64,000 nucleotides of DNA, taken from assembly GCA_044892525.1 (NCBI GenBank), contig CM097888.1:12896001-12960000 (forward strand). The letters are read 5' to 3'. Positions 35,882 to 64,000 of this stretch are shown here, piece by piece. The translations under genes were made by a program, and so were the position numbers. Under the pieces are notes generated by a model. It was not told the origin of the DNA. It saw only the letters and a program-made list of their open reading frames with translations, and searched no databases. The stretch comes from Schmidtea polychroa (lineage: Eukaryota). Within the stretch, counting starts at the first letter, position 1, and every line of letters starts with the position of its first letter.

Positions 35882-36207
35882 TGAGCTGTTGAATAGTGCC
35901 AGCCAGTCGTAAGATCGAGTTGTTGAATAGTCCAACCGATCAGAAGGAGGAAGATTGAGCTGTTGAATAGTGCCAGCCAGTCGTAAGATCGAGTTGTTGA
36001 ATAGTCCAACCGATCAGAAGGAGGAAGATTGAGCTGTTGAATAGTGCCAGCCAGTCGTAAGATCGAGTTGTCGAATAGTCCAACCGATCAGAAGGAGGAA
36101 GATTGAGCTGTTGAATAGTGCCAGCCAGTCGTAAGATCGAGTTGTCGAATAGTCCAACCGATCAGAAGGAGGAAGATTGAGCTGTTGAATAGTGCCAGCC
36201 AGTCGTA
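35882..36207 (+). repeat. 74-bp tandem repeat, about 4.4 copies, dimeric (34+40 bp)
   Basis: Units start at 35882, 35956, 36030, 36104, 36178; both subunits share YGAGYTGTYGAATAGT. Confidence 0.95.
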
Positions 36208-46500: not shown

Positions 46501-49500
46501 GGGACAATTAGACGATGAAGGAAAAGAGAGAGTAATCGGGTATTACAGTCGAACATTCAAAAAGCACGAAAAGAACTATTCGGTAACAGAACGGGAAGCA
46601 TTGGCTATAATACAAGCTATCAAACACTTCCGATACTTACTATGGGGACATGAGATATGTATAACCACAGATCATCAACCATTAGTGTGGTTAGGGCAAC
46701 ATAAAGAAGCGTCCAGTAGACTGATGAGATGGGCCATGCAATTGAAAGAATACTCCCCATTTATAAAATTCAAAGCGGGAAGAGCAAATGCCAACGCCGA
46801 TTGTATGTCAAGATTTATTTTTCCAGATTTGGTGGATTCCGAAATGCAACGCATATGCTTAATAGTAGCGGAAGATTTGGATTTCTGTCAATTGCGAAAA
46901 GACCAACAAGAGGACGCGGAATTAAAACAAATTATCGATTATGTAAAAACCGGAAAGACAGATGTATATGCGAAAGACCAAAAATTAAAAGAACATATGG
47001 ATAAACACCGACACCGATATATTATAGAGAAAGATTGGTTGCTGATAATGGATGGGGAAAAACGATTAATGTGTATACCGGAAAACCGACGAAAAGAGTT
47101 ACTAACGCAATATCACGATGGGAGATTGGGAGGACATATGTCATCGAAAAAGACGTTAGCAAGAATGAAACAGAAATATTTTTGGCCTACGTTAACTGAA
47201 GATGTAACCGAATGGGTAAAAAATTGTCTAACTTGTGCAACCAGGAAGAATACTGGATCGAAATGGAAAGCACCTTTAACGCCAATGCCAGTACCAATAG
47301 AACCAATGACAATGATATCCATGGACGTAGTTGGTCCACTACCAGAGTCAGATAAAGGAAACGTTTACATTCTAGTGATCACAGACTTTCTTACGAAATT
47401 CCCAGAAGCATTCGCGATGCCAGACCAAAAAGCTAAAACAATCGCAAAAATTTTGGTAGAAGAGATATGTTGCCGATATGGAACACCAAAACAGATATTA
47501 ACCGATCAGGGAACTAATTTTATGAGTGAGATAATGAGCGAAGTAACAAATTACTTCAAAATAGCAAAACTAAGAACATCTCCATACCACCCTCAAACCA
47601 ATGGGATGACGGAAAGATTTAATGGAACACTTATACAAATGTTATCAAACTACGTCGACCGTCACCAACGAGATTGGGACGAATATATAAACCTATGTCT
47701 TATGGCATACAGAATGTCGATTCACGCATCAACGAAAATGAGCCCATTCAAATTAATGTACGGAAGAGAGTGTAATATGCCAATGGACCTGGAATACCAA
47801 CCACCGATATCGCAGTATATGGAGATCGATGATTATGTTACGAAATTCAAGGAAAGAATGCAAGAGATTTGGGAAACTGCGGGATTAAATATCAAGTTCT
47901 ACCAGGAAAGTTATAAAGATTTACACGATCGAAAGAAAAACGTGAAGCAACATACGTTTCAAACAGGTGATTGGGTAATGATAGAAACCCCGGAATTAAT
48001 TCCAGGAACCACAAAAAAGTTACAACGCAACGGAAAAGGACCATATGAGATCTTATTCGTAGGCGAAACCAATGTAAGAGTGAAATTGGTAAATAACCCA
48101 TTTACCAGGCCAATATACGTAAACGTGGCACGATGCAAATCAATTCCAAAAACAGCCACAAGTCAACCAGAAGGCCGTACATTAACCACACGTTCGCAAA
48201 CCTACCGAATGAACATGATGCAACAACTCGCAGAACCGATCACCGGACGATTGGGTATCCAACCATCAGAAGCGGAAAAGATTGTAAAAGAGGTAAAAAT
48301 TAAAATACCTGGATGGGCGAAAGATCGATTAGATTTTGAAATATTAGGAGGATTATTGACGATGATCGAGAACTATGCAAATAGAGAAAGGACACACCCA
48401 TTATTGCGAGTAGTCAAAAGCCAATGGCCAATATTATTTACAATAACAGATCATTACGGAGACACACCATTACACAAACTCATGAAAGTAGGTAACAACG
48501 AGCAAATACTAGAAACAATAGAAGCATTTCACGACTGCAAGCGATCAACAGAACAAACAAACAACCAAGGTTACACACCATTAATGATAGCCGCAAACAG
48601 AGGCAAAACAAAAGACATTATAACCGCATTACTCGATACCGGATCGAAAATAACTACACAAGACCACGAGCGGAAAAACGCTCTACATCATGCTATCGAA
48701 GGGAGAAGTACCGAGGCGTTCACGTCATTGATGGAACTACTATCATATGAGGACAATCGGGAAGTCGGAAACATGTATGATGGATTGTTAACAGCGATCA
48801 AAGAAAAACTGACGACAATTACCGGAATATTAATTACATGGAGAAATCCAATTCAAAACGATTATATGATCAACGTAAACGAAGCGTTCACGAGAGGAGA
48901 GAACACGCTGATGAGAGAAGCTATGAAAGGACATCATTTATTCGAAATCCCGAATCAATTACTAGAACGAGGGATAAAATTCACAAATCACAAAGATGAA
49001 CAGTTAACAAAAAAGCGAATCGACACATTCGAAAAATCACTATTCCAATTTACTAACCAAGTACGAAATAAATATTGGGAAACGGTAAGTGTGTTATATA
49101 TGATGGACACAATGAATAACATCCGCGAGAATTACCTGGATATTATCCAAATACTTACAGCAGAGGAACGAATCAATAATCCAAACGGAAAGAAAACGAA
49201 AATAAGGTATGAGAAATCCAGGGAATCAAAGTCAACAACGAACCAAACGGTCACAAACAACGTCATCGAAACCAAATCAATGAGTATAGATCAAGAGGCA
49301 ATAATACGCAAAGCAAAAGAAGTGTTCTTTGAGGAAATGCTAGAGCTGCCAGACGAAATAATATTGTCCAAAATAATAAAAGCCGTACACACATACGCAA
49401 GAGATCAAACCACGGGTTTAGATATCGGGAAAATCAAAACCTTCTTGCCTCGAGCATTTACGATGGTAACAAAGGATTCCAGAACACCTCTACAACAAGC

Positions 49501-51427
49501 AATACTAGCTGCAAAAGAGAATAGAGCAATAACGATCATGAGAATCCTTGGGGAGATGGGCGAGGAAACCAACACGAAAAATGAACAAGGTGAAACCGCC
49601 ATGATGTATGCAGCTATAACGAAAATACACCCAAAAACACTCCACATCCTACATCAATCAGGATCGAAACTAGACGAAAGGTCCAATGAAGGAAATTCCA
49701 CCTTGGACTGGGCAACCATACAGCCAAACTTAGAAATGATCAGATTTATTTGCAAAAATGCGACAAAGGAAGAAGTTGAAAATATGTGCAAAGACACATC
49801 TCAGTTTCAATGGAATACGATACGGAAAAATCTAGAAGCAATGAAATTATTATTAACATGGAGGGTACCACAAAATAATAAATATGCGATAAATGTAAAC
49901 GAATTCTACGAAAACGGAGAAAATGCGATAGTAAAGAATACCCTAACTAAGGGGGGGACGCCTAAAATTATTTTAATAGTATTAAATAGAGAAGACCTAA
50001 AATTCACGCAAAATCAGAACGAGCAACAACGAATTGGGAAACATCGTCGTATGCAATTGAGAGAGTTAGTTAAAGAATGGAATAGAAAGAGACATGCTGC
50101 AACGGGTAGAAAAGAGTTTGAATTCGAAGCAAAATTAGCAAGAAACAGAGTGCTAACAGCATATCGCAGATTATTGAACGATATAAATGTCGAGGACGAC
50201 ATTTTAAACGACAGCGGGGGAGATAAAAACGATGACAATGACGGAAAAGGCCGAAAGGAGGATAAAGGGAAAAGAGAACCGGAAGAGGATAAACCGGAAA
50301 ACAAGGATTTGGATACGAAAAGAGAGGGAAACAGGCCGGGAACCAAGACCAAAGAGGAGGAAAAACCGAATAATGGAAAACAGAGGGTATGCCTACCTTT
50401 CACTAACAAAGAAATAGAGACAAATATGATATTAATGATAATTATGCTTACCATGATAGAGTTAGTAACAGCTCATGGAGGGACGAGAACGATAAAAGAA
50501 ACCAAAGAAGCGGAGAATCAAGATAGCAAAGAGGATGAACTAAAACAAGAAAAGAAAAAGCAAGCACAAGAGCAGCAGTGGGATTTGAAGGAAGAATGGG
50601 ACTTAAAGGAAAGGTGCATACTAGGAAGATGCATGTCTAGAGCGTATCAGAAACTAGTACTGATAAATGAGGACACAGAACCAATAACAGAAGTAAGAAT
50701 ACAAGAAGCATACCGAAATCGAGACGGGAAGAGAATAACGAACGTTAAAGGAAAAGAGGTACACCTAGGAAAAGGTGGTGAAGTAGTAATAACGCAGCTC
50801 CAACCTAGAAAAGAGCACAAAGTCTGTATTTCAAGATTAGGACCAGGTGAGAGATGCCATCAATATGTGACGCAGCAGCAGCCGCCGAAAGAATACACGG
50901 TTTGTATCTGGAGGAACGAATCAAAAAGAGAATGCCGACGATACCCGGGGAAAAGAGGAAAGAAAAGAAAAAACCACGACGAAAAGAACGAAGGAGGAAA
51001 GCACAAGAAAACCGGTGAGGAAGCTCAGGACAACTATGTTTCGGAGGAAGAGATGGAAAAAATACAAAAGATGGCAAAGGAGGGTATGAACGAGGAAATA
51101 GCAAGAATACGGGAAATGATGAAAGGAAATGGCAAAAGAGGAAACGAGCAAGGTACAGAAGCGATATCAACATTAACGAACAAGGAGAAACCAGAGAATA
51201 TAAGCGTGAAGCAGATGATGTGGATCAGTGGGATAATAATAACAGGGGCCTTCCTAATCATAACAGGGGGAACAATAAAAATAATTAAAGATAAACGACA
51301 TCGCGGAGAACTAGAGATGACCCGAATCAGAAATTTCCAACATCGAGTGAAACGACCAAGTGATATCAAACAAGAACAGTGGGTGGAGGCCTGGAACGCT
51401 CAGCGCCCTCCAAACTCACGTATATAG
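37574..51427 (+). CDS. 4617-aa Gag-UBL-Bcl2-like-Env-PR-RT-RH-IN-ankyrin polyprotein
   Basis: Single stop-free ORF. Capsid-like N-terminus, three CCHC knuckles (38327-38479), DTG (44804), LDLKSGYWQI/MPFGLTNAP/YIDD (46022), TDAS RNase H (46469), HHCC and D-D-E integrase, GPY motif. Confidence 0.97.
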   Translation: MTNVVKTDEYKEKFRGEPFNGNANKLATFITNFEVYITVCGWTPEAISKRMPLFLCDSALEVYLEAKERDTKLEKWEDIKTFLKKTFGASKPINQALGELANRKQRANESITLYASELRRLAKKAMNGKLPEENLIGYFIEGLRREEVRASVGCQMCKTLEEAIDWATRCELHLPAQMNIMQEEGRIMTAIAKADNGDNNNQEPKMNQFIPGAHQIFKPPQGRSNGNNGNRNNPNNENNFNNRRNMNDNKQCRTCGKPGHWDRDCYRNSNCNRCGRRGHTENVCQLRGCFNCGQPGHISRDCRERGQQQRPPQRNNNYMANPQRQSNPSEGKQMNVMQEISQMKQMMQQMMRPRPESAPQQTQNIRMMRSTENLNNYEVHQHVQEWQRLQAEEERIKQERNQQRQEQPLRINMMKLVKDMKSQYCYNYGKNPRVVPMTEPEKVTETTTEMKTENSTTILKGNQRIQKIFWKKIKDKIEKEHNKAKAETEDENNKSKEQTSQLNHQMLQELESEETTIFERKKLKRVPRMRNLQINMMKRTKDVASSDEEEDYVSSLGGEILQLNEISEPPKGEIKEEESESEITSGSEDEDIEIKLRKAREEAIKQVAEILPAVVRNQEFIDVISFRRFVQKVMKLERNEKDLIPNEEKSIIKKYMEKMKQADTTRYVIKIGTSRGLERMWIKNTVTDELFDWIREHLGNSRKKEYLYQYQGEQIKPDMHLVDALIWPGETQILKLHKEKQPANLYDWAKDAKAEYDFNIKLKLEQIKQCTLRRNLDKLIKQIQEQVEDNWELLITRRAPAMYELMSRLRDTEMLRMSDWRTINLIHKYGRLKETQPQRLEITIWLPNEEKRRIKMSNRSTVDDLVSKINQEITEKVRSESSDGMVDDVVLMYDKIILRAEDDTSLSELGMWDNHQIIRIVPMDEFRTRDVIYQKEIRDRMKTLYQKSTEIIEIHQQWLKEKELQGKITKLSTRSCRRTPWERVWNAENKEWEIRKGIFVETDIGETESESEEEEEEPPEYEEEARGQTSDDESETDVTSESENEARHIHAMRKKEREYADMDGEEATEAREREETERYKQLGDILAMGAKNQKRQVVALANIILKTSENIHNLRGMAKAIEEYRQYNEWYPEQLEQIIRKWRNQEWAQDTQERYHIRIKYPDKSIEELEVHPTTKIRELKKKLAYETPFHLQLFGKSLDDNADVGITPMRLEETNVLTMAETLGKPLKRKSKITKLTKGSLSTPSSNKAPSKSNETEEVEEIILEDSDDEPGERSPLLVRWPTGAEMWTNNQPSTSYQQPTKLNIKEIIDNTTETETDEQFQKQREPTKVTPEGQTDKIIDEWNEWLRNNDSSLPRTDNERNPNYENTREAGTMMEKRAKGRPKKQGEKSEFKTKEQLKQEQGQVRLEKLDKIVWDLKEAQPTIERGEKWIRELIKDMLIITNPQLRRLWQRKVASTEARQLWHIVSGIIPKLIKEKTKTTKTDWDETKRVIELLTTNANDDEHHLVVITYLMYNLMGLAARKIPNKQFANHVEMTVSIIENTIEPHIIRAGGWKRLIQAPRKNEQERSMQVRLKKLLNELEWELPMKDPASRKASINSLMMTMMIWMLCTSGATGFTIYDCDNMIMRDKYSLRDIEECRQASPNKLDIVRTKVTYHVYQESDFIRTQARECVVSKKVLAYYCGQYSYSTLILPGLDKEIVSIQREDCKELFRTGALKMHNGVTIHGQTGMIKTESVYVSGKVKSSDGSCNGGTYTIRGEVISGVVVIESYTVELKEYEAQFDANNYQMKTNLACRATENVCRTGVSTIIYEANNQKCRLQLLKSALFNEVKGEIYENENDEDGNDRVRMRNGKPMPPSPREKRLSTQKTPTALITDDPDLGMRFIKEKETTKCDSIVYKTNYAGIYMSRQIIDRAVGKIATEDVKLYLYANNKMDFLFHRGQTTLQKVYYDLIQNDCSLNKEILKTKLAIAITHPDNTMPSLPLPDGHFGRMVGEVMYTYQCTKTYARMPEKSILPEKRCANELEIRYKGQNRFVQPVTRIMNPVGFYPNLFNCSNAYGPLYERPNGKWMMLPGKTISEEPKKFGLIELATELDFKPIDVSNGGMYSPEDLETARLNVLFPARRESILSNMVTITGGTNYQSGPNYELLLSPDHFQQATSNMMKAMWGRFLVFGQMMAGILGIILIIQIVRVILTQMLACFDIYKREKKVNWKMIVGFLPFLAKTMVLHGHSKDIHRIKRLIKILTKIKGTDEEVGRRFRKVMYDEATRRQLKKNKPKFLDRFRSQSSNSDSDDDDNGNDKCLYPTRNPNEKPMETAPYWEKEKTNTWIANGSYIPPDIVGPQAALTMTQNMYPQLPSQPGMHYMPTRRTKSVDQADDVRTIAAMSLPGGPAVTVMIQINGKETNAMIDTGANVSAIAINQIPSKHWKDMESTTIHIIACSKETVDVVGRWWTTLRYQDNEIETYLAVIPKLSVPCIIGTDLMPELLKEVVIDLTTMCLKDKTGRICKMNAVIRCPEKIIVPAKSQMICQIKVDTGMEGEVIFEPSKSFEKRRELPLAREIITINQEGVIPLNITNFEEEDKIIYENEKLGRLTPMMDIELPKMTNEMSKDDELWTIDSMLLTNDEKKKLHRLLVEYKDIFAISDLDLGTCDVTLHAIPLIDETPIALRPYKLAEMQKEIAEAEVQKMLDAKVIEPSCSPWQFPVVMVKKKDGTQRFCIDYRKLNAVTKRDIYPLPDINEMLLMLQGAAYFTSLDLKSGYWQIKVKDEDKEKTAFTLGRDLYQFRKMPFGLTNAPASFQRCMNFVTHGIKQCMVYIDDLLIYSATFEQHLEDIRNVFIRLRQWKLKLKPSKCDWAKEKVTFLGHIVSAKGKEPDPRNIEKIKTCPAPKTVTQVQEFLGLCGYYRKFIKNYAGIAKPIQELVKKDISFIWEKEQQQAFETLRDKLIEAPILVHPDFKKPFLLATDASGYAAGAILGQLDDEGKERVIGYYSRTFKKHEKNYSVTEREALAIIQAIKHFRYLLWGHEICITTDHQPLVWLGQHKEASSRLMRWAMQLKEYSPFIKFKAGRANANADCMSRFIFPDLVDSEMQRICLIVAEDLDFCQLRKDQQEDAELKQIIDYVKTGKTDVYAKDQKLKEHMDKHRHRYIIEKDWLLIMDGEKRLMCIPENRRKELLTQYHDGRLGGHMSSKKTLARMKQKYFWPTLTEDVTEWVKNCLTCATRKNTGSKWKAPLTPMPVPIEPMTMISMDVVGPLPESDKGNVYILVITDFLTKFPEAFAMPDQKAKTIAKILVEEICCRYGTPKQILTDQGTNFMSEIMSEVTNYFKIAKLRTSPYHPQTNGMTERFNGTLIQMLSNYVDRHQRDWDEYINLCLMAYRMSIHASTKMSPFKLMYGRECNMPMDLEYQPPISQYMEIDDYVTKFKERMQEIWETAGLNIKFYQESYKDLHDRKKNVKQHTFQTGDWVMIETPELIPGTTKKLQRNGKGPYEILFVGETNVRVKLVNNPFTRPIYVNVARCKSIPKTATSQPEGRTLTTRSQTYRMNMMQQLAEPITGRLGIQPSEAEKIVKEVKIKIPGWAKDRLDFEILGGLLTMIENYANRERTHPLLRVVKSQWPILFTITDHYGDTPLHKLMKVGNNEQILETIEAFHDCKRSTEQTNNQGYTPLMIAANRGKTKDIITALLDTGSKITTQDHERKNALHHAIEGRSTEAFTSLMELLSYEDNREVGNMYDGLLTAIKEKLTTITGILITWRNPIQNDYMINVNEAFTRGENTLMREAMKGHHLFEIPNQLLERGIKFTNHKDEQLTKKRIDTFEKSLFQFTNQVRNKYWETVSVLYMMDTMNNIRENYLDIIQILTAEERINNPNGKKTKIRYEKSRESKSTTNQTVTNNVIETKSMSIDQEAIIRKAKEVFFEEMLELPDEIILSKIIKAVHTYARDQTTGLDIGKIKTFLPRAFTMVTKDSRTPLQQAILAAKENRAITIMRILGEMGEETNTKNEQGETAMMYAAITKIHPKTLHILHQSGSKLDERSNEGNSTLDWATIQPNLEMIRFICKNATKEEVENMCKDTSQFQWNTIRKNLEAMKLLLTWRVPQNNKYAINVNEFYENGENAIVKNTLTKGGTPKIILIVLNREDLKFTQNQNEQQRIGKHRRMQLRELVKEWNRKRHAATGRKEFEFEAKLARNRVLTAYRRLLNDINVEDDILNDSGGDKNDDNDGKGRKEDKGKREPEEDKPENKDLDTKREGNRPGTKTKEEEKPNNGKQRVCLPFTNKEIETNMILMIIMLTMIELVTAHGGTRTIKETKEAENQDSKEDELKQEKKKQAQEQQWDLKEEWDLKERCILGRCMSRAYQKLVLINEDTEPITEVRIQEAYRNRDGKRITNVKGKEVHLGKGGEVVITQLQPRKEHKVCISRLGPGERCHQYVTQQQPPKEYTVCIWRNESKRECRRYPGKRGKKRKNHDEKNEGGKHKKTGEEAQDNYVSEEEMEKIQKMAKEGMNEEIARIREMMKGNGKRGNEQGTEAISTLTNKEKPENISVKQMMWISGIIITGAFLIITGGTIKIIKDKRHRGELEMTRIRNFQHRVKRPSDIKQEQWVEAWNAQRPPNSRI
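39566..41239 (+). other. Three ubiquitin/SUMO-like domains in the polyprotein (about 39566-39784, 40088-40339, 41033-41239)
   Basis: The third reads HIRIKYPDKSIEELEVHPTTKIRELKKKL...LQLFGKSLDD (ubiquitin LEV.P..TI..K.K..L.F.GK.L.D). The first has YQYQGEQI (SUMO F.F.G..I). The second has TVDDL..KI..LMY...L..D.SLSELG. Confidence 0.6.
41858..42257 (+). other. Bcl-2-like domain in the polyprotein
   Basis: IEPHIIRAGGWKRL matches the Bcl-xL BH2 motif LEPWIQENGGWDTF; 53-residue gap-free register back to the BH1 position (DEHHLV for NWGRIV). Confidence 0.6.
42377..44182 (+). other. Envelope glycoprotein domain, chuvirus/class III fusogen-like, with internal signal peptide and TM anchor
   Basis: Signal MMTMMIWMLCTSGATG|FTIYDC; YSL.DIEEC, ECVV..YYCG, C.....TG, DGSC.GG.Y, CR.....C; TM WGRFLVFGQMMAGILGIILII. 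The pattern matches remembered Jingchuvirales G proteins. Confidence 0.8.
48449..49765 (+). other. Two ankyrin-repeat clusters after integrase (48449-48740, 49475-49765)
   Basis: YGDTPLH, QGYTPLMIAA, RKNALHHA; SRTPLQQA, QGETAMMYAA, EGNSTLDWA. Confidence 0.85.
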
Positions 51428-51587
51428 AAAGGAATATGACTGTATATAATTGTAAAAAGTAAGTATATCTTATGTATATAACAGTACTATATCTTTATAT
51501 AAGCGCGGTATCAATATTATACAATAACGGGAATCATAAAATAAAATTAAAGTTAAATAAGAGTTGAAAAGTGTATATAAATTAAGA

Positions 51588-51947
51588 ATGGATCAAGGAA
51601 ATAACGAAATGAACCACAATACAGTAACTGAAGAATTATGGAAGCAACAATGTGCCGTATTAGCACAATTAGTGTCCAATTTGCAAGAACAAGGATTGAC
51701 GATGCACAGAAACCTAATCGAGAGTATGAATAGAGGATTTAGTTATTTGAAGATAATTGAAGACCAGAGGTTGAAAATCGAACAAATGCAAAGAGAGATA
51801 GAGAGGATAACCCAATATAGCCGTAGACAGGAAATTGAACTAAACAGAATGATGGAGGAAGCAGAACAGACAGAAATAGAAGACTGGTCGGAATGGTTAA
51901 TGAATAGAGAGGAGAGCGGACACGAAGCCGACTCTTCCGAACCCTAA
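51588..51947 (+). CDS. 119-aa coiled-coil accessory protein
   Basis: ATG at 51588; heptad-rich, acidic tail; same strand and codon style as the element. Confidence 0.65.
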   Translation: MDQGNNEMNHNTVTEELWKQQCAVLAQLVSNLQEQGLTMHRNLIESMNRGFSYLKIIEDQRLKIEQMQREIERITQYSRRQEIELNRMMEEAEQTEIEDWSEWLMNREESGHEADSSEP

Positions 51948-52032
51948 ACCAAACCTAGCTTAAAATGTAAATAACTGTAAATAAAATATCGAACCTGTAT
52001 CGATAAGAACTATATGTACATATAATTATAGA

Positions 52033-53421
52033 ATGGATAAACGACAAAGAGAAGAGTTCAGAGAGATTGTCGAGCAAGTCCGAAAATCTACAACGATCAG
52101 AATACACAAACATGTTATGTGCGGAATCTGTGAAAAGTTACTAAAAGAACCCCACCAAACCCAATGTGGATGCAGAGTATGTAAAGAATGTATCAGTGAA
52201 GCAATAAAGAATAGACCACAGAGGTGCCCGGTGTGTAAAGAGACACTAATATCGAGTTTAGAAGACACTAACGAGGATAAAGCCGCAGTGAAAGACATGT
52301 TAAACACCAACCTGGGATGCAAAAATGCCCCATGCGAATGGAAAGGAGTAATATGGAAGGTAGTACAACATATGGGAGAATGTATGTACAGAATTGGCCA
52401 GTGTGAAAGGTGCCATAAAACCATTCGAGCAAGCGAAGAAAAAGAGCATCAAAGGCAGTGTGAAGAGAGATTGGAAAGATGTGAACACTGTGGAGAAATA
52501 GATACGTGGAAAAATCTCACCCTCAAACATCACAATGTCCAAGAGGAGAGAGTATGTGCAGAGTTCAGTGGGGAATGCCCAAACGGATGTAACCAAGGGG
52601 AAATAATGAAGGTGGCACAGCATCTAAGGGAATGCGAAAAGAAAAGAATGACATGTGTACTAGGTAGATGGGGTTGTCAGAAACTACTACACCGAGGTGA
52701 GTTACCACATCATTTAGTAGAAAATGCTTCAACCCACGCAGAAATGTGGTCGACTGCGTTACAAGAAAGCGAAGAGAAAGTAAAACAAATGGAGATAGAG
52801 ATAACATCGTTGAAAGTGTTAGTCAAAGAACTACTAGAAGAAAGGGAAGCGTTCGAAGAAGCCCGAGCAAACATAAAGATGCAAATAAACCGAATAGAAA
52901 TCAGTAATAATCAGGCCAAGGAGCTACATCAGAAAATACGGGAAATAAATCTAAATGAGATAACCCCAACAGCACCCTACATATGGAAAATAACGGGAGT
53001 AAAAGAAAGAATACGAAAAGCAAAAACCGGAGAAGAGACAAGAATAACAAGTCCTGCATTCCATTCTTGGAAAAATGGGTACAAAATGAAAATGAAGATA
53101 TATCCCAACGGGGACGGAACCGGATTAGATACGCACTTTTCGATTTTCTTTCTGTTATGTAAAGGGGAATACGACGAAATAATAGAGTGGCCGTTCCAGG
53201 CAAAAATCGATATTGCACTAATGAATGACCGAAGCATCCACGAACAAAGCTTCAAGACAACTGGAAACCAAATGTGTTACCAGAGACCTACGGCAGAAGA
53301 AGGATCAGCAACAGGAGCACCTACGTTCATCCTACAACAAAAAGTAGAAGATATGGCAAGAAATGACACGGTGTATATCAAGATGACCGTGAGGAAAGAG
53401 GAGAAGGGTAGAACGGAGTAA
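52033..53421 (+). CDS. Full-length intronless TRAF-family protein (RING, TRAF zinc fingers, coiled coil, MATH), 462 aa
   Basis: CGIC..LL.EP.QTQCGCRVC..C..CPVC; C.N..C.WKG...H..EC; YIWKI, SPAF...GYKM...YPNGDG.G..TH.S.F..L..GEYD....WPF. Confidence 0.93.
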   Translation: MDKRQREEFREIVEQVRKSTTIRIHKHVMCGICEKLLKEPHQTQCGCRVCKECISEAIKNRPQRCPVCKETLISSLEDTNEDKAAVKDMLNTNLGCKNAPCEWKGVIWKVVQHMGECMYRIGQCERCHKTIRASEEKEHQRQCEERLERCEHCGEIDTWKNLTLKHHNVQEERVCAEFSGECPNGCNQGEIMKVAQHLRECEKKRMTCVLGRWGCQKLLHRGELPHHLVENASTHAEMWSTALQESEEKVKQMEIEITSLKVLVKELLEEREAFEEARANIKMQINRIEISNNQAKELHQKIREINLNEITPTAPYIWKITGVKERIRKAKTGEETRITSPAFHSWKNGYKMKMKIYPNGDGTGLDTHFSIFFLLCKGEYDEIIEWPFQAKIDIALMNDRSIHEQSFKTTGNQMCYQRPTAEEGSATGAPTFILQQKVEDMARNDTVYIKMTVRKEEKGRTE

Positions 53422-53614
53422 CCAATCGAATAATGTTGTATATAATAATCTGTATATATCGGTGTATATAACCAATAAAATATTATATAATAATAGTATG
53501 AAAACCCTAAATACGAAAACCCAAAAATGATGCGAAAATTTCCCAAGAAACAGTAAATAATGAATAAATTCCTTTTTCATAATAAAAAGATTAATCGATG
53601 TCTATGATTTAGAG

Positions 53615-54670
53615 ATGACACAAGAGAAACTAACCGAAACTGCGATAGCCCCAACCAATGTCAACAAGACACAAATTCCCCGAGAACATAACAAAAAATG
53701 GAACAGAGTAATGTTCCAACTAACTAATCTCACCCGAAATCACATCGAAGAAGCTAGAGAAGATGAGAATAGTCAATACCAATGGTTAATACACAACTTA
53801 AGAGCGGAAGCAGAAGCATGCAAAAGAGCATCAAAATGGGCGTCACTAGAAAATACCCGCCAAGAAGCACACAGCCACTACTTAAAGCAGCTAGTGCAGG
53901 AAGCGAGAAAGAGACTTACCGATGAGAACACCAAGCGCGAAGCGGAAAAACAAATAGAAGACAGGAAAATGATGCACTTAGTGGCAGAAGCGAGAAAATG
54001 GAAAAGACAAAGCAATGAAATGAAAAAAGAGATGAAAGAATTGCCCATGAGACTCGGATATGAGAGCGAACAGGGCAAATGGGAGGAGAATTTAATAATA
54101 AAGGAAGAATTGAAACGGTTGAGAAAGGTCGCCGCCCGAAGTCAAACCTGGCAAACAAAGGCTATGGAATTTGAGCGACATTTGGCAATAAAATGCGACA
54201 TAAGAGAGCACGAGAATGCCGCAATGGAAGGGATGATAACCCAACAAGCAGGACGGATTGTGGAATTAGTAAATCAGGTCGAAGAGATGAAAAGAGACCT
54301 TAATGGATTACAAGGATCGTTAGAACAAAGAAACATGGTCCTAGCGGGAAAAAACAGAAAATTAGAAAACGAGAGGAAAATGTATACCGAAAATATCAAA
54401 AACTTGGAAATAGAAATTGAAAAATGGAAGGGCGACGAGAAAATCAAGGCCTTAGATAGACAAGTAGAGGCGAAAGACGAAGAGACAAGGTATCTCACTT
54501 ATCTGCTCGACGAAGAGCTGAATATCACTCGAGCTCTAAGAGACGAAGTTAGTGAATTGAGAGCTCAAATCCCCCAATATTACCTACCCTATGACCCTAT
54601 TGCGATACAGCTGCATCCAGCGGTCGATAGTGACGAAGGTTATGTGGGACAGGAGGAAACCTTCGTATAA
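53615..54670 (+). CDS. 351-aa coiled-coil accessory protein
   Basis: Long stop-free ORF, E/K/R-rich heptads. Confidence 0.75.
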   Translation: MTQEKLTETAIAPTNVNKTQIPREHNKKWNRVMFQLTNLTRNHIEEAREDENSQYQWLIHNLRAEAEACKRASKWASLENTRQEAHSHYLKQLVQEARKRLTDENTKREAEKQIEDRKMMHLVAEARKWKRQSNEMKKEMKELPMRLGYESEQGKWEENLIIKEELKRLRKVAARSQTWQTKAMEFERHLAIKCDIREHENAAMEGMITQQAGRIVELVNQVEEMKRDLNGLQGSLEQRNMVLAGKNRKLENERKMYTENIKNLEIEIEKWKGDEKIKALDRQVEAKDEETRYLTYLLDEELNITRALRDEVSELRAQIPQYYLPYDPIAIQLHPAVDSDEGYVGQEETFV

Positions 54671-54783
54671 GGGTGAATAAAAAGATAAAAACAAAAATCG
54701 GGACGTATATCCCAAACAAAAAAATTAAAGTATTGTAAAAGTATTCAAGGGACTGTAACCCGAACTATTAAAATTTTATATAA

Positions 54784-55545
54784 ATGCATAAGTATAAGTC
54801 GCACTATAGCGCACCATTAACTGTACATATTACAGATATGAAAATCGAGGAAATAATAGAAATTACGAGCGACGTGGAAGAGGGAGAGATTGAGGCAGAA
54901 ACAACAGAAACACAAACGTTAAAGGCCAAGTTACGGGAAGAGAGGGACGAAAACGAGAGACTAATAAACAAATATATAGAAGACCGAAAAATGATTAAAA
55001 TACTAAAGAAGGAGTGCGAAGCGTTAGGAGAAATAAAGAGAGAAGCTGAAGAGAAGAATGAATGGTTGCAAGAACAACGAACACGAGGAAGAAACTGGGA
55101 AAAGATTGCAGAGGAACTATGGCAAGAGAGGGCAAGCTTCAAGGCAGAAGAAGTAATCCAAGATTATTGGAAAACAGAGGCGAAAGAACACCAAATAACT
55201 ATAAATAAATTAAATCGACAATTGGAGGAAAAACAACGAGAAAGTGAGGAAATGAAGAAATGGATTCGCAAGTACCAAGAGATCGAGAGAAAACAACAAC
55301 AACAACAACAACGAAACCTTTCGCAGGAAAACGAACAAGATTTCCTACAAATCGAACTAAAAAGGAATCTCGACAAAAAACGGGAAGAAATTAAGAGACT
55401 GAAAAAGGAGATAAGGCACATGAAAAGGGAGGCCCGTGAAAAGAACAGACAGTTGGAAATGCTGCCCGAGTTAAGACACAGAGTCATTAAAGCGGAATCC
55501 ACCCTGATGAGAATCGCCGAAAATAACCCAAACCAGAATCATTAA
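54784..55545 (+). CDS. Coiled-coil accessory protein (likely start ATG 54838)
   Basis: Long ORF with E/K-rich heptads and poly-Q; ATG 54838 follows TTACAG. Confidence 0.72.
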   Translation: MHKYKSHYSAPLTVHITDMKIEEIIEITSDVEEGEIEAETTETQTLKAKLREERDENERLINKYIEDRKMIKILKKECEALGEIKREAEEKNEWLQEQRTRGRNWEKIAEELWQERASFKAEEVIQDYWKTEAKEHQITINKLNRQLEEKQRESEEMKKWIRKYQEIERKQQQQQQRNLSQENEQDFLQIELKRNLDKKREEIKRLKKEIRHMKREAREKNRQLEMLPELRHRVIKAESTLMRIAENNPNQNH

Positions 55546-55586
55546 ATTAAGGGTCACTAAAACCAATTGTAAATAAACCATAATGA

Positions 55587-56156
55587 ATGTATAATAGTAT
55601 CATGCGAGGCGAGATGATGATAACAATGACGGTATTGATGATTCTGACGGAGAACAAACAAGTAAACGCCCAACCGAAAATCGTGCGAGATTACCGAAAT
55701 CAAAATCAAGAACCTAAACGAGAATCCGGCCAATGCACATACCCTATGACAGTAAAAATCCATATCATCCAAACCCTTCAATCAACCCGTTCACACATCA
55801 ACAACATCCAAACAATGTGTAAAAAGAATCCCATTTGTAAAATGATAAACAAACAAATCCTCGAACAAATCCAACAATTCGACCAGTTAGAACAACAAAT
55901 GCAACAAGAGAATTTTGAAAATCTTGTAGAAAAGCCAAAAACACCTCCCGAAATCAATGACACCCATTATCTCATATATGTGGTGATCGCAGAAACCCTC
56001 CTCCTATGTCTACCAATAATCATGAAGATTTACGAAGTTAGAAATAAATGTAGAATCTCGACACCAATAAGAGTAACCTCGAACAGAAATCCTCAAGAAG
56101 TGCCGCTGACAAATCTTAACCCAACCCCATTCCGACCTCGAATCCCGAGTAACTAA
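55587..56156 (+). CDS. Small type I membrane protein candidate
   Basis: Signal-like MMITMTVLMILTENKQVNA|Q; Cys-containing ectodomain; TM YLIYVVIAETLLLCLPIIM; Pro-rich tail. Confidence 0.65.
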   Translation: MYNSIMRGEMMITMTVLMILTENKQVNAQPKIVRDYRNQNQEPKRESGQCTYPMTVKIHIIQTLQSTRSHINNIQTMCKKNPICKMINKQILEQIQQFDQLEQQMQQENFENLVEKPKTPPEINDTHYLIYVVIAETLLLCLPIIMKIYEVRNKCRISTPIRVTSNRNPQEVPLTNLNPTPFRPRIPSN

Positions 56157-59100
56157 CCAATCCAGCCGAATTCTAACAATCAGACCTATCTCAACATCAA
56201 TACCCGAACCAACCAACAACCGCCAGCAGAAGCATCAAATGGTTAGCAGTTCATAAACTCTAACTCAAACATTGGTGTTATCATATGCAGAAACTTTTAT
56301 TGTATATACAAACTATCACCTTAAGTGATACTTGCTTGGTCTTGATTTGACCTATATCTTAGAATAAAATTGTTTTTGTTATTGTAGTATAATTGTTTCG
56401 ATATATCCTTTTTATGAATGCATGAAGTAAGATAACTATGCAATTGCGGGACGCAATTTTGATGGGTCCCCGAGTGATTTGTTGGGCTGAGTCGAAGGGT
56501 AGTTGGGAAATTAGGGCAAACTTAACTAAAATAAAATAAAAAATAAAAACAAATAAATTGACAAATAAAATAGAATAAAACATAAGAAAAACAATAATTA
56601 GAAAATAGGAATTAAAACAAAAAATATAAAGATGAGAAAAAATTAAAATAGGACAATAGAATGGCGGAAAACAACGTAAAATATAGTAAATAATAAGAAA
56701 ATTAAGGAAAATAAATAAAAACATAATTTTAATAAAGAAAGTAAGAAGAAATAACTAAAAACAAGGAAAATAAATTAAATTAATAAAATTAAGCGGTACT
56801 CAATTCTAATTGGTCCGCGCAAACAAAAAATTAATATATAAGCAGGCATTAAAAACATAACAATTACTGTTAATCAAACCACCTCAATAGGTAAGTGAAA
56901 TTTAAACAAGACTACTGTTAATCAAACCACCTCAATAGGTAAATCTATTCTACGACAGAACAGAACTCCAGCAACTAACGCACGATAACTCACGAGGACA
57001 ATTCCAAGATTCAAGAGATTTTTACAGAACCAGACGATATTCGAGCATTAACTGATTCGACATAGTACCCTTTTCGACTCAGCCCATACTTGTAGCAATC
57101 CTTCGGTAAGGATTTTTGATTGCTTATTTTGAATTTTTAAGTAATGCGTATAGTTTAATAATATTTTTAATTTAAAAACTGGTTTTTCTTTTCGTTTGAT
57201 TTTCGAATGCTTTACTTAAATTAATAATTTGCTTAATAATAAATGATTTGCTCGTTAAGAATTATTGATCTTTTATGAATTAATTTTTATGAATTATTAT
57301 TGGAGACTATTCAATTTTGCGAGAAACGTGGCGTTGAGATACTCTATGTCATGGTGTGAGGTGCCTTCGGGAGCTCCACCGGTGGACATAGGGTATTTCA
57401 ATCACGCAGCTAGATTGGGCCGAAATGTGAGGGCTTCTTCACGGGTCCAATTGCTGAAGGTGCGACTAAAATCTATAGGTAAATGGTGGCAGAAAATTGA
57501 TAGTCATGTAGTGATTGAAAACAAAGATATGTAAGAAAGGAATCGGAGAATTTCGATGTATTCGCGCAGTGATTGAGGGTGTCACACTATCGTTTTCGAC
57601 TGCCGTTTTTGCTAAGCTTAAATTTTTCTCCATCATCAATGTAAGTTGTGCGTCAAAAAGTGTTCAAACCTTAGTGAGGCTATCTGTGACCTATCTTCGA
57701 TGTTCATACTTTTCACTTAAGATCTGTTTCGACCAATTGTTAGTCTAAGACCTTTTGAACTGGTATTCCGTTCATCTAAAAGTTCTCTTAAAGACATAGT
57801 TGCAAGGGAGTTCAAAGTAGATTGCTTCAGACAAGTATTAGGATTACTCGAAATGACTGTTTGTAAATAAATGGTAGAACCATGTAAAATGATTTAATCC
57901 AAAAAGTTATTCAGAATTGCATAAAACGAGTTTGTTCCAAATAAAAGCTTAAATTACATAAAATGATTCGCTATCATAAATTTTTAGAATTCTATATAAA
58001 AGGATTTACATACAATTAATTATCATGATTACATAAACTATTGGCATCAAATAATTTAAAAATGAAAAATGCAACCAATTCGAGCCAAGAAAAATATATT
58101 TCTTCAAGTTAGCCGATGATCTTGTTAATTAAATAAAAAATTCCAGTATTTCATGGGGTTGGCAATCCAGCAGGGATAGGTAGAAATCCTCCAGCACTTA
58201 GAGAGTAGATCGATAAACTAGGTTTGAGGAATTAAAGACGAAAAATCCACCCTTGGAGCAAGCTATATCCAACGTTTGCAATACAGATAATTATAATTTT
58301 TCCAATAATCCGGTGAGAATTAGTAAACCATCATCATATGCAGTAGAATTGTGAGCGATTACGCGGTAGATAAAATTCTGAGAGAATGCCATCATGCAAA
58401 CATTTAACACCTACATTTGTAGTGACGAGTATAAATAAGCGTGTGACAGCGCAACTTGCATGCGTCACCAGTTGCAGACATACCTAGTAGCCAAGTACAG
58501 TGGGCAAAGTCACACACGCATCTACTCCTGAAAAACCAGACCGAACACACCAGATGGAGTTTCTATTAACTAATTAAACTACCGACAGGTATCGGATTTC
58601 ACCGCTCCGGATTAAATGTCAACCACCGGGCTGACATTTCCTTATCCACCTAGCAGGAATGGTCGGCTACTAGCTCACATTGATACCGTGCTCAGTTATC
58701 ATAAAGGCAAAGTCTTTTAACGCTAAACCCGATCATAATCATGATTATTCTCTCTTTATTATCTTAGCATGAATGGCATAGAAATTATTTCATTTTTTGA
58801 CATAATTGTCATTAACATTAATATCGAATATTATTAAACAAATATTATTTAAACCGGGTAAAACACATATGCGAGTAATTTGAGAGAACGAATAAATAAT
58901 TAAAAATTTAAATAACCTTCCGTTTATCCTGTAGGAACTAATCAACAGACATTATGGACCCCCTTTTCCATAGATAGTCACTCGACCCCAGTATATGATA
59001 CACTCATCAAAATCACTCGTTCGGGGGGGGGGAAGTCAACAATTCAACTCGATTCTCAATAAACGTGAAATAATGACTTCAAGCGGATTATATAAATAAT

Positions 59101-59352
59101 CATTTTCATCGACCTAGAATTTCTCTCACTAATGGTAATATCTTCCTTTCCTTGTGCGAAATGTGGTTTGAGCGATTTATCCTCTTACAGTTAAAGATCC
59201 AAAAGGTATGAGGATCCATCGTGCAGTAGAACTTGTCTTGACTAGTAAACCCATATTTTTGTCTATGATCAGTAAAGTCGGAATGTGGTCAGATGATGAC
59301 ACTCCCGTCGATTTAATTATTCTCATTTTCATTTTTTCCACAGTCACTCAAA

Positions 59353-60102
59353 ATGTTGCCAAATTCCAAGACCGTTCTTCGACCTTGTTTTTCTTGCTCC
59401 GACAAGAATTCAATTATCAAGGAGCTCCAGGCCCAGATCGGAAAGCACAAAAGAAAGATAGATGAGTTAGAGGGGACATGGTTTAGTCCCACCCAGATGA
59501 AGGAGGTTCAGAAGAAGCTGCACCGAAGCGAGTACTGTAGAGACGCGTTGATTTCCGAGAGTCGGGCGCAGAGGAGCCTGATAAAAGAGCAGTCGGAGGC
59601 GCTGCACAAATTATACGTCCAGGCAGCAACTACAAGGAAGATCGCGAAGATCCCAATTAATGAAGCCAGTAATCTTTTCCCAGCGCATCATGATATCTCT
59701 GGCGGATCTTCTTCTCAAGTCGGAAAGTCCTGCCATGGGTGCGTAGAGACCGAGCTCTCACCTAAAGAACCAGAAATTATCTGTACCGGAACCAGTAAAG
59801 TGCTACCTGCGATAGCATCCACCTCCGCAGCACCCCCGACCAATCCAACGGCATCGAAGCCAAAACGTCGGCAATTATCGAGAGCCGAACGCAAAAAGAA
59901 ACAGCGGGAACGCGTAACCGCCAAACAGAACCAGCAATCGTCGGATCATCCAATCAAAGTCATCAACCCTCCTGCAGCAATTGATTTAGCATCAGTGATC
60001 TCAGGGCGAATCATCTCCGCCGCTGGTGTTACCTGGGAGGAAAACGCCTCTGAGTTTTTCGATTTGGAAGATCTATTGGCAGACTCGGAGTGGGAGAAAT
60101 GA
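59353..60102 (+). CDS. Second copy of the LTR-encoded 249-aa protein
   Basis: Identical except P>Q and one synonymous change. Confidence 0.7.
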   Translation: MLPNSKTVLRPCFSCSDKNSIIKELQAQIGKHKRKIDELEGTWFSPTQMKEVQKKLHRSEYCRDALISESRAQRSLIKEQSEALHKLYVQAATTRKIAKIPINEASNLFPAHHDISGGSSSQVGKSCHGCVETELSPKEPEIICTGTSKVLPAIASTSAAPPTNPTASKPKRRQLSRAERKKKQRERVTAKQNQQSSDHPIKVINPPAAIDLASVISGRIISAAGVTWEENASEFFDLEDLLADSEWEK

Positions 60103-60620
60103 GAACTTCCCCGTAAAAAGTCTTCGTTCTCTGAATTGACCTGAACATTGTCTGATAACATTTTACCTTGTCTCTTTTCCCGTTGTCGTGAACTTTATTG
60201 TATAGGTGTTAGATATATTTGTGTGATAATCTTAATAATAAACCATTTTTGTCTGCATACGTTTTTTTTGTGTTCATCTTAAGACAGTTGAGTTGAAATT
60301 GGTAAATGGTATTGAGAGTCATAAAATTATGAGGAGCATTAGTCAGTTGGTAAACTCAGCTAGAAATATTGCGATGGGGCGACGGAATGAGTAGACGTAA
60401 GTCCTTCTATCGGCAGTCAGGGTTGGGAAGTCGAGGCCTCAGTAAGGAGTAGTCCGAAGGAGCTGGCTCACCTGCTTACTGGCGTCTCGCCGGCATAGCA
60501 CAGTTCCAACGTGAAGCAATTCACGGGTGCTATGTTGGAGTGTAAGTTATGTACGGGTCCCGCTCGGCGATGACCAAATAAATGACGGGCGAAATTGAGG
60601 TGGGCATTCATCCTCTAGAC

Positions 60621-63212
60621 CAGGGGTTCCCAAACTTTTACCAGTCGAGACCCACTATTTAGACCGCAAAGTTTTCACGACCCACCTGTAAATAAAACAA
60701 GAAAAAAGCTAAAAATGTTGATTTACATATTTATTTAACACGCATATTTAAGAATAATTAATAGGATGAATGAGATGAATGAGCCTGCTTTCTATTTTTT
60801 GCAATAACATCTTCGACATCTACTTTTATATTTGTTGTTATTAAGCGAAGTGAGTTTGATAGCTGTAATTTGTTGCGATATTTATTTTTTATTGCAATCA
60901 TTGACGAAAATGCAACCTCGCATAGATAAGAAGTTGTGAAAGGAAGCAATACTTAACGCTGCGGTGTGTAAAGTTGGATATGTGTTTTGCACCGATAACC
61001 AAAACTGTAACAATTTCGTACCGTCAAAATGTAATTTAACAACACTATCTTCGAATAGCTCAATTAATTCCTCATCCACTATCGTCGATATACCGGTAAC
61101 TAAACCACTTTGAAATGGATTTTGAACCCATGTATATTATTCTAGATTTTTCATTTCTCCATAGAAATAAAAATCAAAATTTTCTTTAAGTCTGTCCAAA
61201 TGCTCAATTATTAAAGAAATTAAATCGTTATTGGGCGTTACTTCATTTTCAATGATAAAAGTTTGGAATGTATCAAAGCAGTCATATTTATTTTCTTGAA
61301 CATTATTTTTCCACAACATAAGTTTTTTTGTAAAACCTTTTATTTTACCATGAACCGAAAATATATCAATTCCATTTGTTCCTTGTAATTGTAAATTTAA
61401 ATCGTTCAATTTCGAAAATATATCTGCTAAATAAGTCAGCAAAACTACATATTTCACATCGCGCAAATTTGATGTGTACTCATCTTGTTTATGTTCATGT
61501 AAATATATTGCTACTTCTTCGCGAAGTTCAACAAGTCTTGTCAGGACTTTGCCTTTCGATAGCCAGCGGACTTCTGTATGCAGCAGAAGAGATTTATGTA
61601 AACTTCCCATCTCTTCGCAGAGTTTTTGAAATAATCGTGATTGTAATGGTTTGCTCTTAATAAAATTTACAATTTTTATAGCAGTGGTCAAAACAGTATT
61701 TAGACTTTTTGGTATATTTTTGGATACTAACGCTTCTCTATGAATAGTGCAGTGAGTCCACGTTGCATTTGGACATTTTTGAAGACAACGTGTCACAGCA
61801 CCACACATTGCTTTTGCACCGTCGCTACATATTCCGACGCAGTTTTTCCAATCCAGTTTTTTCAATGTTATATAAGTGTCGAGCGTATCAAAAATTATTT
61901 CACCAGTTCCTCGAATGATTGGTTCACAAAATAATATGTCTTCAAAGAACTCGTTGCACCATATAAAACGTATGAAAATAATTAGTTGGGACAAACCTTG
62001 TACATCGGTTGATTCATCCAGTTGCAACGCAAAAAGTCCACTAACTTGAATTCTATGGATAAGCTTATTTTCTACCCATTCGGACATTTCATCAATTCTA
62101 CGAGCAACTGTGTTATTAGAAAGTGGAATTGATTCAACTTCTTTTAAGCTCTGCTCTCCAAACATAATTCCAACAGCATCTTTTATAGCTGGAAGTACTA
62201 ATGACTCTCCAATAGTGTGCGGTTTACCGGATTGTGCAATTCGCAAACTAATGAGATACGAGGCGAACATAGCCTTTTCATTAATGCTGATGAAGCGAGA
62301 AAATAGATTTTTTGAATTATTTAATTCCTGTAATTTGGTTTTAAAATAATCAATAGGCTTATTTTTTAAATCGGAATGTTTCGTCTCAAAATGTCGTATT
62401 AATTTGTTAGGTCGCATACTTTCATTAGCCAGAATTTCTTGACAAATAACACACTGTGGGCGTGGATCATCTTCTTTTCTATTCCATGTAAATCCAAATT
62501 TTAGATATTCAGAATCATATTTTCTTTGGCCACGTTTTGATGATTGCGAACTTGTTGAAGGATTCTCACCAAATTTTCTCTTATTATCTGTTTTTGTTGC
62601 TACAGAACCTTCTTTTTCTTTTTCATTTTCAATTGTTTGATTTTGCCCAGGAGTCTTTTTCAACCACTTATCCATCGCAGCAATGGTTCTTTAAAAATAA
62701 GAATATTAAGAACTTTATTTATTACATGAAATACTATAGCACTAAATTTAAAAAATACTTACATTTGATTTTAAATTATGTTTTTTTATTAACGAAACAC
62801 TTTTATTAACAATATATATAAACTTTTTTATTAACAACACAACACCGTACTTAGTCCAAAACAAAATTTGCACTGGTTGTCTGAATATTTAAAGTTTGTA
62901 ATCCTAAATTTCTAATTAACCGTTATTTGTGTTTGGTTGCCTGGTTAAAATGTAGAAAAATGGTTGCTATGATGCGATTATTAGAAACAAGTTCTAAATA
63001 CAAAAATTTGCTAAAAAGAAGTTTAATTTTTAAACCACCTAAAAATATGCAATAATTTTTTGTCGCAAACCTACTTATATATAAATATTGTGACAAGTTA
63101 AGTAAAAGCAAATTAATATGCTCAGTAATACAAATATTAAATTTTTGGCGACACACCGAAAATAGCTTCGCGACCCACCAGTGGGTCGCGACCCACACTT
63201 TGGGAACCGCTG
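60621..63212 (-). mobile_element. Buster/ZBED5-type hAT transposon inserted in the 3' LTR
   Basis: TIR CAGGGGTTCCCAAA / CAGCGGTTCCCAAA; 8-bp TSD CTCTAGAC (60613-60620, 63213-63220); single empty site at 34452-34459 in the 5' LTR. Confidence 0.95.
60758..62675 (-). pseudogene. hAT Buster-type transposase with one premature stop (61137-61139) and one frameshift (about 60950)
   Basis: BED finger CVIC..RHFETKH, LDESTD, SDGA, HC..HREAL, RWLS; the dimerization domain LLPFTTSYLCEVAFS continues in a shifted frame. Confidence 0.92.
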
Positions 63213-64000
63213 CTCTAGACTAAAGCTGCACTAGAAAGGGGTCATCCGAGTAGTGTACCCGCAACAGTATCATTTGTTTGTACTCTGTTCCAAGTTATTC
63301 ATTGAATTGGCATTTTTGTTGTTGATGTTTAATTGGTTGTTTATTGTTAAATCTGAATATGGTGGAGTTTTGTCTGTTGCTGCTGGTAAGGTAGCCATGT
63401 TGTTTTGTTTTTGTTTGAAAAAGAGCCAGTTTTTTAATTAATGTTATTTAACTCTTTGACGACGAATTTTAAAAAATGAAATTTCTGTAACTTTAACGAT
63501 AGAAATCAGCTATATAGCTTGTTTAAAATGTGTAATGTTGATTTTGTTGGGTTATTGAGTTGGTGATAAAATTTATTGTTACTCTGACTCCAAGCGTGTC
63601 TTTATATAATTCACAAATAACACTTGACAACAGAAATCTTTATTGATAATCACAAATAAACTTTCACTTGACAATGACAATAAATTCAACACTCTGCTGG
63701 GTGACTATACAGTGCTTATTGCAACACTCGGTGAGGAATAGCACTTTCGTATAACACCGGATTAAAAGATCACAAATTACTGATTGGTTTCTAAACTGGG
63801 ATTTTGAGCTGGTTGTTTTCTTTGACTTTCTTTCAAACTTTATTCAAATAATCAATAACTTCTTTTCGTTTTATTATTCAACTAATTTTTCTCTTCAACT
63901 TTTCTCCAATAATTATTTTCCACAATTATTTCCATTACAATTATTTTGACAATCGTTTGTCCAACAACGTTTCGTCCAACGTCTAATTTTCTCCAATAAT

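Follow-up and report, generated by a model that had tools for sequence, protein, structure and literature searches.

The element and its genes

The window analysed here is a 64,000-nucleotide (nt) stretch of the Schmidtea polychroa genome (GenBank assembly GCA_044892525.1, contig CM097888.1, positions 12,896,001 to 12,960,000 of the forward strand), and the subject of this work is a set of Pumilio-type TGTAHATA words in the 3′ part of the giant Burro-type Ty3/gypsy long terminal repeat (LTR) retroelement that it encloses. The element occupies window positions 30327..63266 on the plus strand, which is also the strand of every element feature described below unless stated otherwise. It has TG...CA ends flanked by a 4-bp target duplication (GTAT, 30323-30326 and 63267-63270) and measures ~30.3 kb when an inserted DNA transposon is excluded. 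Its 4.18-kb 5′ LTR (30327..34505) is 99.7% identical to the 3′ LTR (56480..63266) over 4,142 nt. A 5′ open reading frame (ORF) encoding a 161-aa RING-finger protein (34833..35318), with a T-rich acceptor and its own AATAAA followed by T-rich sequence, precedes a single polyprotein of 4,617 aa (37574..51427) that comprises gag with CCHC knuckles, a fusion glycoprotein (env), protease, reverse transcriptase (RT), RNase H, integrase and ankyrin repeats.

Five accessory ORFs lie 3′ of the polyprotein. ORF2 (51588..51947, 119 aa) has no Pfam match and is followed by a TRAF-like ORF of 462 aa with RING and MATH domains (52033..53421), by ORF4 (53615..54670, 351 aa, C-terminus ETFV), by ORF5 (54838..55545, 235 aa from its second ATG or 253 aa from the ATG at 54784) and by ORF6 (55587..56156, 189 aa), the last ORF before the LTR. 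The AATAAA at 56363..56368, which is followed by T-rich sequence (T 0.60), is predicted to serve all accessory mRNAs as their poly(A) signal, and a second host-type AATAAA is present at 60237 in the 3′ LTR.

The family of this element is young and large, with 379 candidate places of which the best 40 are 98-100% identical. One giant ORF in which env stands between gag and pol, a length of ~30 kb, multi-kb LTRs and a cargo of TRAF, ankyrin and RING domains place the element with the Burro type. The planarian Burro/GYPSM1 elements are likewise described as exceeding 30 kb, with a giant ORF, env between gag and pol, ankyrin repeats, TRAF-MATH and accessory ORFs (PMC6431247). The window family differs from them by a TRAF encoded in a 3′ ORF of its own and by the lack of a BIR match, a domain that is present in the sister family introduced below as family B. 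The same gene order and type of fusion protein are also reported for the GAG-ENV-POL errantiviruses of Platyhelminthes, Nematoda and Bryozoa (PMC13524379). A protein search returned no close full-length relative, the best env-bearing relatives being 47-52% identical over RT to integrase. The kind of element is already published, and the stop-anchored Pumilio word described here is the new part: the sections of PMC6431247 that deal with Burro/GYPSM1 contain nothing on spacer motifs or the regulation of accessory ORFs, and the words 'Pumilio', 'UTR', 'accessory' and 'splic' do not occur in the main text of the eLife survey PMC13524379. As for regulation of another kind, BURRO1 expression is reported to be under PIWI control (PMC8532177); Burro is named once in the relevant part of PMC11410931.

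Occurrence, conservation and identity of the Pumilio-type word

The original prediction listed twelve TGTAHATA words, at 51441, 51473, 51572, 51966, 51976, 52015, 53437, 53451, 53463, 54822, 55568 and 56301, and all twelve are exact and on the plus strand. Its rough estimate that fewer than one would occur by chance also holds, as the six spacers (969 nt) have a mean of 0.57 motifs in 20,000 dinucleotide shuffles made spacer by spacer, none of which reached 12 and the highest of which reached 5. The motif at 54822 counts as spacer sequence only if ORF5 starts at the ATG at 54838; with the ATG at 54784 the comparison becomes 11 motifs against 0.53 expected. The antisense strand of the spacers holds 2 motifs against 12 in sense, and the 13.9-kb polyprotein ORF contains no sense copy. 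The most enriched 8-mer of the spacers is TGTATATA, which accounts for 7 of the 12 motifs.

Conservation was assessed in 21 diverged copies, namely L061 and 20 copies picked for low ORF5 identity from 151 matches, five of which lack the upstream part; the near-identical copies L001-L030 (98-100%) vary too little and were left out. Motif letters differ from the window at 36 of 1,402 positions (2.6%) and other spacer letters at 1,112 of 10,119 (11.0%), a difference whose significance is overstated because the copies are related. The four motifs nearest to a stop codon are well preserved. Behind the polyprotein, the TGTATATA at 51441..51448 is intact in 16/16 copies and a second TGTATATA at 51473..51480, 46 nt after the stop, in 15/16. 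Two TGTAAATA at 51966..51983 follow the ORF2 stop by 19 and 29 nt, each intact in 15/16, the second overlapping an AATAAA. Three TGTATATA at 53437..53470 follow the TRAF stop by 16, 30 and 42 nt and are intact in 19, 16 and 18 of 20 copies, and the TGTAAATA at 55568..55575 follows ORF5 and is intact in 20/21.

A second positional class consists of three motifs that lie 16-18 nt upstream of the next ATG, each of these ATGs being preceded at 0-2 nt by an AG. They are the TGTATATA at 51572..51579, 16 nt before ORF2 and adjoining the AG at 51585-51586 (intact in 13/16 copies), the TGTACATA at 52015..52022, 18 nt before the TRAF ORF with its AG at 52030-52031 (TGTAHATA in 11/16, 7 of them as TGTATATA), and the TGTACATA at 54822..54829, 16 nt before the likely ORF5 start with its AG at 54834-54835 (TGTAHATA in 14/21). 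The twelfth motif, at 56301..56308 and 145 nt after the last ORF, is intact in only 3/19 copies. The proposed check of conservation across copies thus comes out in favour of the stop-proximal sites with the site after the last ORF as an exception, and the claim that at least one motif follows each of the six ORFs is correct for the window copy but does not extend across copies.

The Pumilio element is given as UGUANAUA (PMC11182014), and three lines of evidence support the identification of the word with it. Among the 46 TGTA words in 15 spacers, 22 are extended by HATA where 5% would be expected, and an AATAAA overlaps 7 of these 22 motifs but not the other 15; the word is therefore neither a bare UGUA nor simply a poly(A) signal fused to it. 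Variation at position 5 is confined to A, C and T, with 18 changes and none to G among copies that represent few independent events. Finally, the host encodes a PUF gene (G000:C4 75.19-75.21 Mb) with eight canonical repeats, whose recognition triplets SRQ, NYQ, CRQ, NHQ, CRQ, NYQ, SNE and NYQ we take to be identical to the PUM1 recognition code. Partial copies of the Pumilio exon that encodes repeats 3-4 are found apart from the full gene, at G000:C4 88.41 Mb (L132) and 88.55 Mb (L133). A UPF1 gene is also present in the host.

Anchoring to internal stop codons

In the window the first motif lies at +14, +19, +16 and +23 behind the stops of the polyprotein, ORF2, the TRAF ORF and ORF5, respectively; ORF4 is the sole internal ORF without a motif at this place. 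The distance is also kept at ORF5, whose C-terminal peptide and stop position shift between subfamilies. The letters between stop and motif vary freely, yet the motif stands 16-23 nt behind the copy's own stop in 19/21 copies. ORF6, the last ORF, has a stop position that is highly variable between copies, and here the distance from stop to motif is arbitrary (40-145 nt) or the motif is absent. The spacer behind ORF4 (54671-54837) starts A-rich, has a small GGGA/TCCC inverted repeat at ~54700-54713 and contains an A-run that is expanded in other copies.

Family B, which turned up in a search for BIR domains, is a sister of the window family (family A) with 62% identity in pol, 31% in ORF2 and 29% in TRAF. 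Each of its six internal stops has a TGTA downstream, at +17, +18, +17, +18, +19 and +18, of which five are full motifs, and the motif is found at +16..+19 in nearly all distinct copies of the 24 loci examined. TGTAAATA occurs in family B at homologous places. In the spacer after its 532-aa ORF (L045:3485-3545 and homologous copies) the motif is directly followed by a run of A that varies in length, has ragged ends and may be the product of slippage or a fossil of internal polyadenylation.

L083 and L084 are metagenome contigs encoding gag-env-pol polyproteins that are 44-45% identical in pol. The motif is present at +19, +17 and +18 behind 3/4 of their internal stops. Downstream they encode RNase T-like exonuclease ORFs, and a clean T-rich acceptor precedes each ATG.

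Across these four lineages the full motif stands at +14..+23 behind 12/15 internal stops but behind 0/5 last ORFs and 0/2 5′ RING ORFs, that of the window included. Given the motif counts, 12 of the 13 motif-bearing spacers have a match in this interval against 1.85 expected (P ~1e-10), an interval that was fixed after inspection of the same data. The distance from the motif to the next ATG varies from ~34 to 318 nt, whereas that from the stop to the motif varies within 10 nt. Host TRAF stops served as a control and have neither TGTA at +12..+22 nor the full motif within 200 nt (0/26), and only 1/86 background ORFs has the motif at +14..+23. The Pumilio-type word is real, conserved and anchored to internal stop codons.

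A possible stop-coupled shield against nonsense-mediated decay

Complex retroelements produce nested mRNAs with very long 3′ untranslated regions (UTRs), which are expected targets of cellular decay, and the best-studied answer to this problem is the RNA stability element (RSE) of Rous sarcoma virus (RSV) with its partner PTBP1. The RSE lies immediately behind the gag stop, is position-dependent and acts through PTBP1 (PMC4764554; PMC5580461). The window element resembles it in that predicted sites for a host RNA-binding protein stand directly behind a stop with kilobases of further genes after them, that position matters and that the motif keeps pace with shifted stops. The RSE, however, is one 400-nt pyrimidine-rich element behind gag, whereas here an 8-nt Pumilio word is placed 14-23 nt behind up to five stops. 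Since the spacers are A-rich (42-45% A) rather than pyrimidine-rich as PTBP1 sites would be, the window element does not carry an RSE proper and is at most a functional analogue.

A reading that we consider possible rather than probable, and propose tentatively, is that Pumilio occupies the RNA immediately beyond the terminating ribosome and would thereby protect nested mRNAs, which share one 3′ end and have 3′ UTRs of several kilobases, from nonsense-mediated decay (NMD). Each accessory ORF would be expressed from its own spliced mRNA, which uses the AG immediately upstream of the ATG and extends to a T-rich poly(A) signal, either that at 56363 or that in the LTR. Because the accessory mRNAs would share this distal 3′ end, their 3′ UTRs are predicted to be mostly long: up to the first host-type signal they would measure 4.9, 4.4, 2.9, 1.7, 0.8 and 0.2 kb, or more if they end in the LTR, and this length would expose them to NMD. 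Host Pumilio is likely to bind the motifs on these nested mRNAs, and at +14..+23 it could counter decay. A position of +14 is about the first that lies outside the terminating ribosome, which together with the long 3′ UTRs that invite NMD and the RSV precedent is the reason for this reading. The extra motifs deeper in the spacers may add avidity, and those ~16 nt upstream of an ATG, which are less conserved, may be part of the acceptor. Two other routes to accessory proteins were considered and rejected, scanning re-initiation on the ground that spacer ATGs are not depleted (43 against 46.9 expected) and read-through fusion on the ground that the spacers contain stops.

Several points weigh against such a shield. 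Pumilio is described mainly as a repressor that lowers mRNA stability (PMC11182014; PMC5758885), and literature searches, which covered neither supplements nor the original Burro description, found nothing on these spacer motifs and no report of Pumilio blocking or otherwise opposing NMD. If the proposal is true, this role of Pumilio would be one that those searches did not find. Shielding alone needs no such tight spacing either, because PTBP1 is effective anywhere within ~200 nt (PMC4764554). The motif is missing behind three of the 15 internal stops, namely those of the window ORF4, the family B IAP ORF, which has TGTATAAA instead, and ORF2 of L083. Half of the 12 motifs, among them the stop-proximal ones at 51441 and 53437, are predicted to be mostly base-paired (unpaired probability 0.06-0.26, against 0.48-0.76 at the other six), which would be an obstacle to PUF binding if the ribosome did not open the sites. 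In an integrase tree of 20 rows, from which L173 was dropped owing to an internal stop, families A and B form one supported clade and L083/L084 another, so that the ten spacers of A and B are not ten independent events; shared ancestry and convergence are both compatible with the tree. Among the listed matches of contigs from presumed RNA runs there is no splice joint or transcript end, a result that decides nothing; nor do these matches include a leader-like loose end, and their poly(A) loose ends fall only in the A-rich TRAF ORF (52610, 53008, 53026 and 53041), where internal priming is likely. An out-of-sample test also failed: the motif is behind the polyprotein stop in 0/7 compact relatives from the same genome (lineages C, E, E2 and F1-F4), which were mostly collected once the stop rule was set.

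On the other side, Pumilio is able to shield an mRNA from decay in at least one reported setting, that of Xbp1 against decay by Ire1 (PMC8948244), and direct activation by Pumilio is reported as well (PMC5758885).

The compact relatives carry a different word in the same slot. Behind the polyprotein stop of five of the seven lineages TGCATG is present at +10, +17, +15, +17 and +17 (L158:4385, L167:4431, L169:4679, L173:4618 and L049:4204, all on the plus strand), in elements that carry an exonuclease ORF, and it is found behind 0/80 background ORFs and 0/5 last ORFs of the same lineages. Four of the five belong to one clade of the integrase tree, and families E and E2 have neither word behind the polyprotein stop. 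TGCATG (UGCAUG in RNA) is what we take to be an Rbfox-type site. It may be an alternative solution that occupies the same position, or else a splicing enhancer, as a donor-like GTRAGA overlaps the polyprotein stop of F1-F4 and TGCATG follows it. In the spacers of L167 (4530-4590), L173 and L168, TTTGATTGG and then GGGTATAAAA precede the exonuclease ORF and resemble an internal CCAAT/TATA promoter.

A broader formulation, that env-bearing giant retroelements park a host RNA-binding protein of the Pumilio or Rbfox type behind every internal stop, some 17 nt on, in this way making a termination-coupled shield against NMD out of a canonical repressor, is put forward with more doubt than confidence. 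The kept distance of 14-23 nt from stop to Pumilio word and the second word in the same slot of sister families suggest that translation termination and the proteins bound to the 3′ UTR are linked by geometry. Planarians suit tests of it by RNAi, as such elements are abundant there and Pumilio is reported to maintain their stem cells.

Alternative explanations

Ordinary Pumilio repression is the alternative with the best case, though we regard it as unlikely. By recruiting CCR4-NOT the sites would lower expression, or set its timing, in stem cells rich in Pumilio, and the nested mRNAs would carry graded numbers of sites, 12 on the full-length RNA and fewer on shorter ones. The perfect word and the canonical host Pumilio agree with this, as does the stem-cell role of planarian Pumilio, which is reportedly essential for these cells. 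The motifs share the UGUA(N/H)AUA sequence, the clustering and the AU-rich context of cellular Pumilio response elements (PMC11182014, PMC5758885), and repression is described as the usual outcome of Pumilio binding, stronger with clustered sites (PMC11182014). Repression works anywhere in a 3′ UTR, however, with no significant effect of location in Drosophila cells (PMC11182014), and the sites of cellular mRNAs tend to lie towards the 3′ end of the UTR and are mostly repressive (PMC11182014, PMC5758885), whereas those of the element stand at the stops of internal genes. A single distal cluster would serve all co-terminal mRNAs, yet it is the distal site that lacks conservation, and the conserved ones follow internal stops. 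The original prediction that the element uses host Pumilio to time or restrict accessory-protein output is thus upheld as far as the identity of the word is concerned, but plain restriction does not predict that conserved sites are anchored to stops and absent behind last ORFs.

The spacers could instead be miniature 3′ UTRs with leaky poly(A) sites in an operon-like arrangement, the motif acting between the ribosome and AAUAAA through Pumilio or CFIm. This would explain why 7/22 motifs overlap AATAAA and why A(A/T)TAAA occurs in most spacers; it would also fit the ragged A-run of family B, which starts 0-12 nt past the motif in the 18 copies listed, and, weakly, two X6 contigs that end ~100 nt into spacers 1 and 3. 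AATAAA is however not significantly enriched (18 against 13.1 expected, with 49/500 shuffles reaching 18), and what follows the internal copies is A-rich with T at 0.07-0.40, whereas T is 0.50-0.60 downstream of the terminal copies (that at 56363, that of the LTR and that of the RING ORF). Planarian poly(A) sites are reported to lack an upstream UGUA, and CFIm59/68 were not found in the planarian data presented (PMC5068929). The remaining 15/22 motifs do not overlap AATAAA, the spacing stays at +14..+19 in spacers of 133-334 nt and slippage can account for the A-runs of family B. The same evidence speaks against the earlier suggestion of a poly(A) upstream element, and we consider leaky polyadenylation distinctly unlikely.

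We judge it improbable that the word is a nuclear splicing signal, bound by another RNA-binding protein and serving the choice among serial acceptors. An AG is present 0-4 nt before most accessory ATGs and TGTA often lies 13-18 nt before the ATG, so that the pre-ATG class would fit; the same is true of the compact families with TGCATG after a stop-overlapping GTRAGA, since a donor followed by TGCATG is the usual Rbfox arrangement. The conserved class, however, is anchored to the stop and not to the acceptor, the stops of families A and B are not overlapped by a donor-like word, and the pre-ATG class keeps the full 8-mer in family A only.

A multivalent Pumilio decoy or granule-targeting RNA resembling NORAD, which has 17 sites (PMC5758885), might be expected of 12 sites within 5 kb in an element with so many candidate places, but it would leave the anchoring to stops unexplained and is highly improbable given only 7 spacer sites in family B and one in L083. 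Internal promoters built on TATA or forkhead elements in the DNA are barely credible and the earlier TATA-like alternative falls with them: the frequent TGTATATA reading, the presumed fit of TGTAAATA to the forkhead word RYAAAYA and the ATTGG and TATAAAA upstream of the second ORF in compact relatives are offset by the lack of enrichment of TATAWAWR (6 against 7.6 expected) and CCAAT/ATTGG (3 against 3.8), by the near-confinement of the forkhead word to the sense strand (19 against 1), by the replacement of the TATA-like form with TGTAAATA at homologous places in family B and by sites 16-18 nt before an ATG that are too near for a TATA box.

Other features of the window and related loci

The ETFV that ends ORF4 (54659-54670) has counterparts in the ETWV, ETFV or ETRL that end the polyproteins of L158, L167, L168, L173 and L049 after a transmembrane segment, and which presumably resemble PDZ-binding tails. 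Neither ORF4 nor any compact polyprotein with such an end has the Pumilio word behind its stop.

A search of IMG/VR yielded only two distant loci (L105 and L106), neither of them informative, and 20 loci around Bcl-2 and env matches were mostly other mobile elements or host genes. L093-L095, L097 and L101 are multi-copy, multi-ORF elements around small Bcl-2-like matches, and behind one 135-aa ORF among them lie five TGTA words interspersed with AATAAA.

The LTRs and the 5′ internal region contain further features. A 249-aa ORF (33192-33941) lies within the 5′ LTR, and a tandem array of ~4.4 copies of a 74-nt unit occupies 35882-36208. The transposon inside the 3′ LTR (60621-63212) is hAT-like, with a 512-aa ORF on the minus strand (61137-62675) and an 8-bp target duplication. 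Near its start (56864-56943) the 3′ LTR has two copies of a 27-nt stretch that ends in AG|GT, with a TATA-like word upstream of them at 56836.

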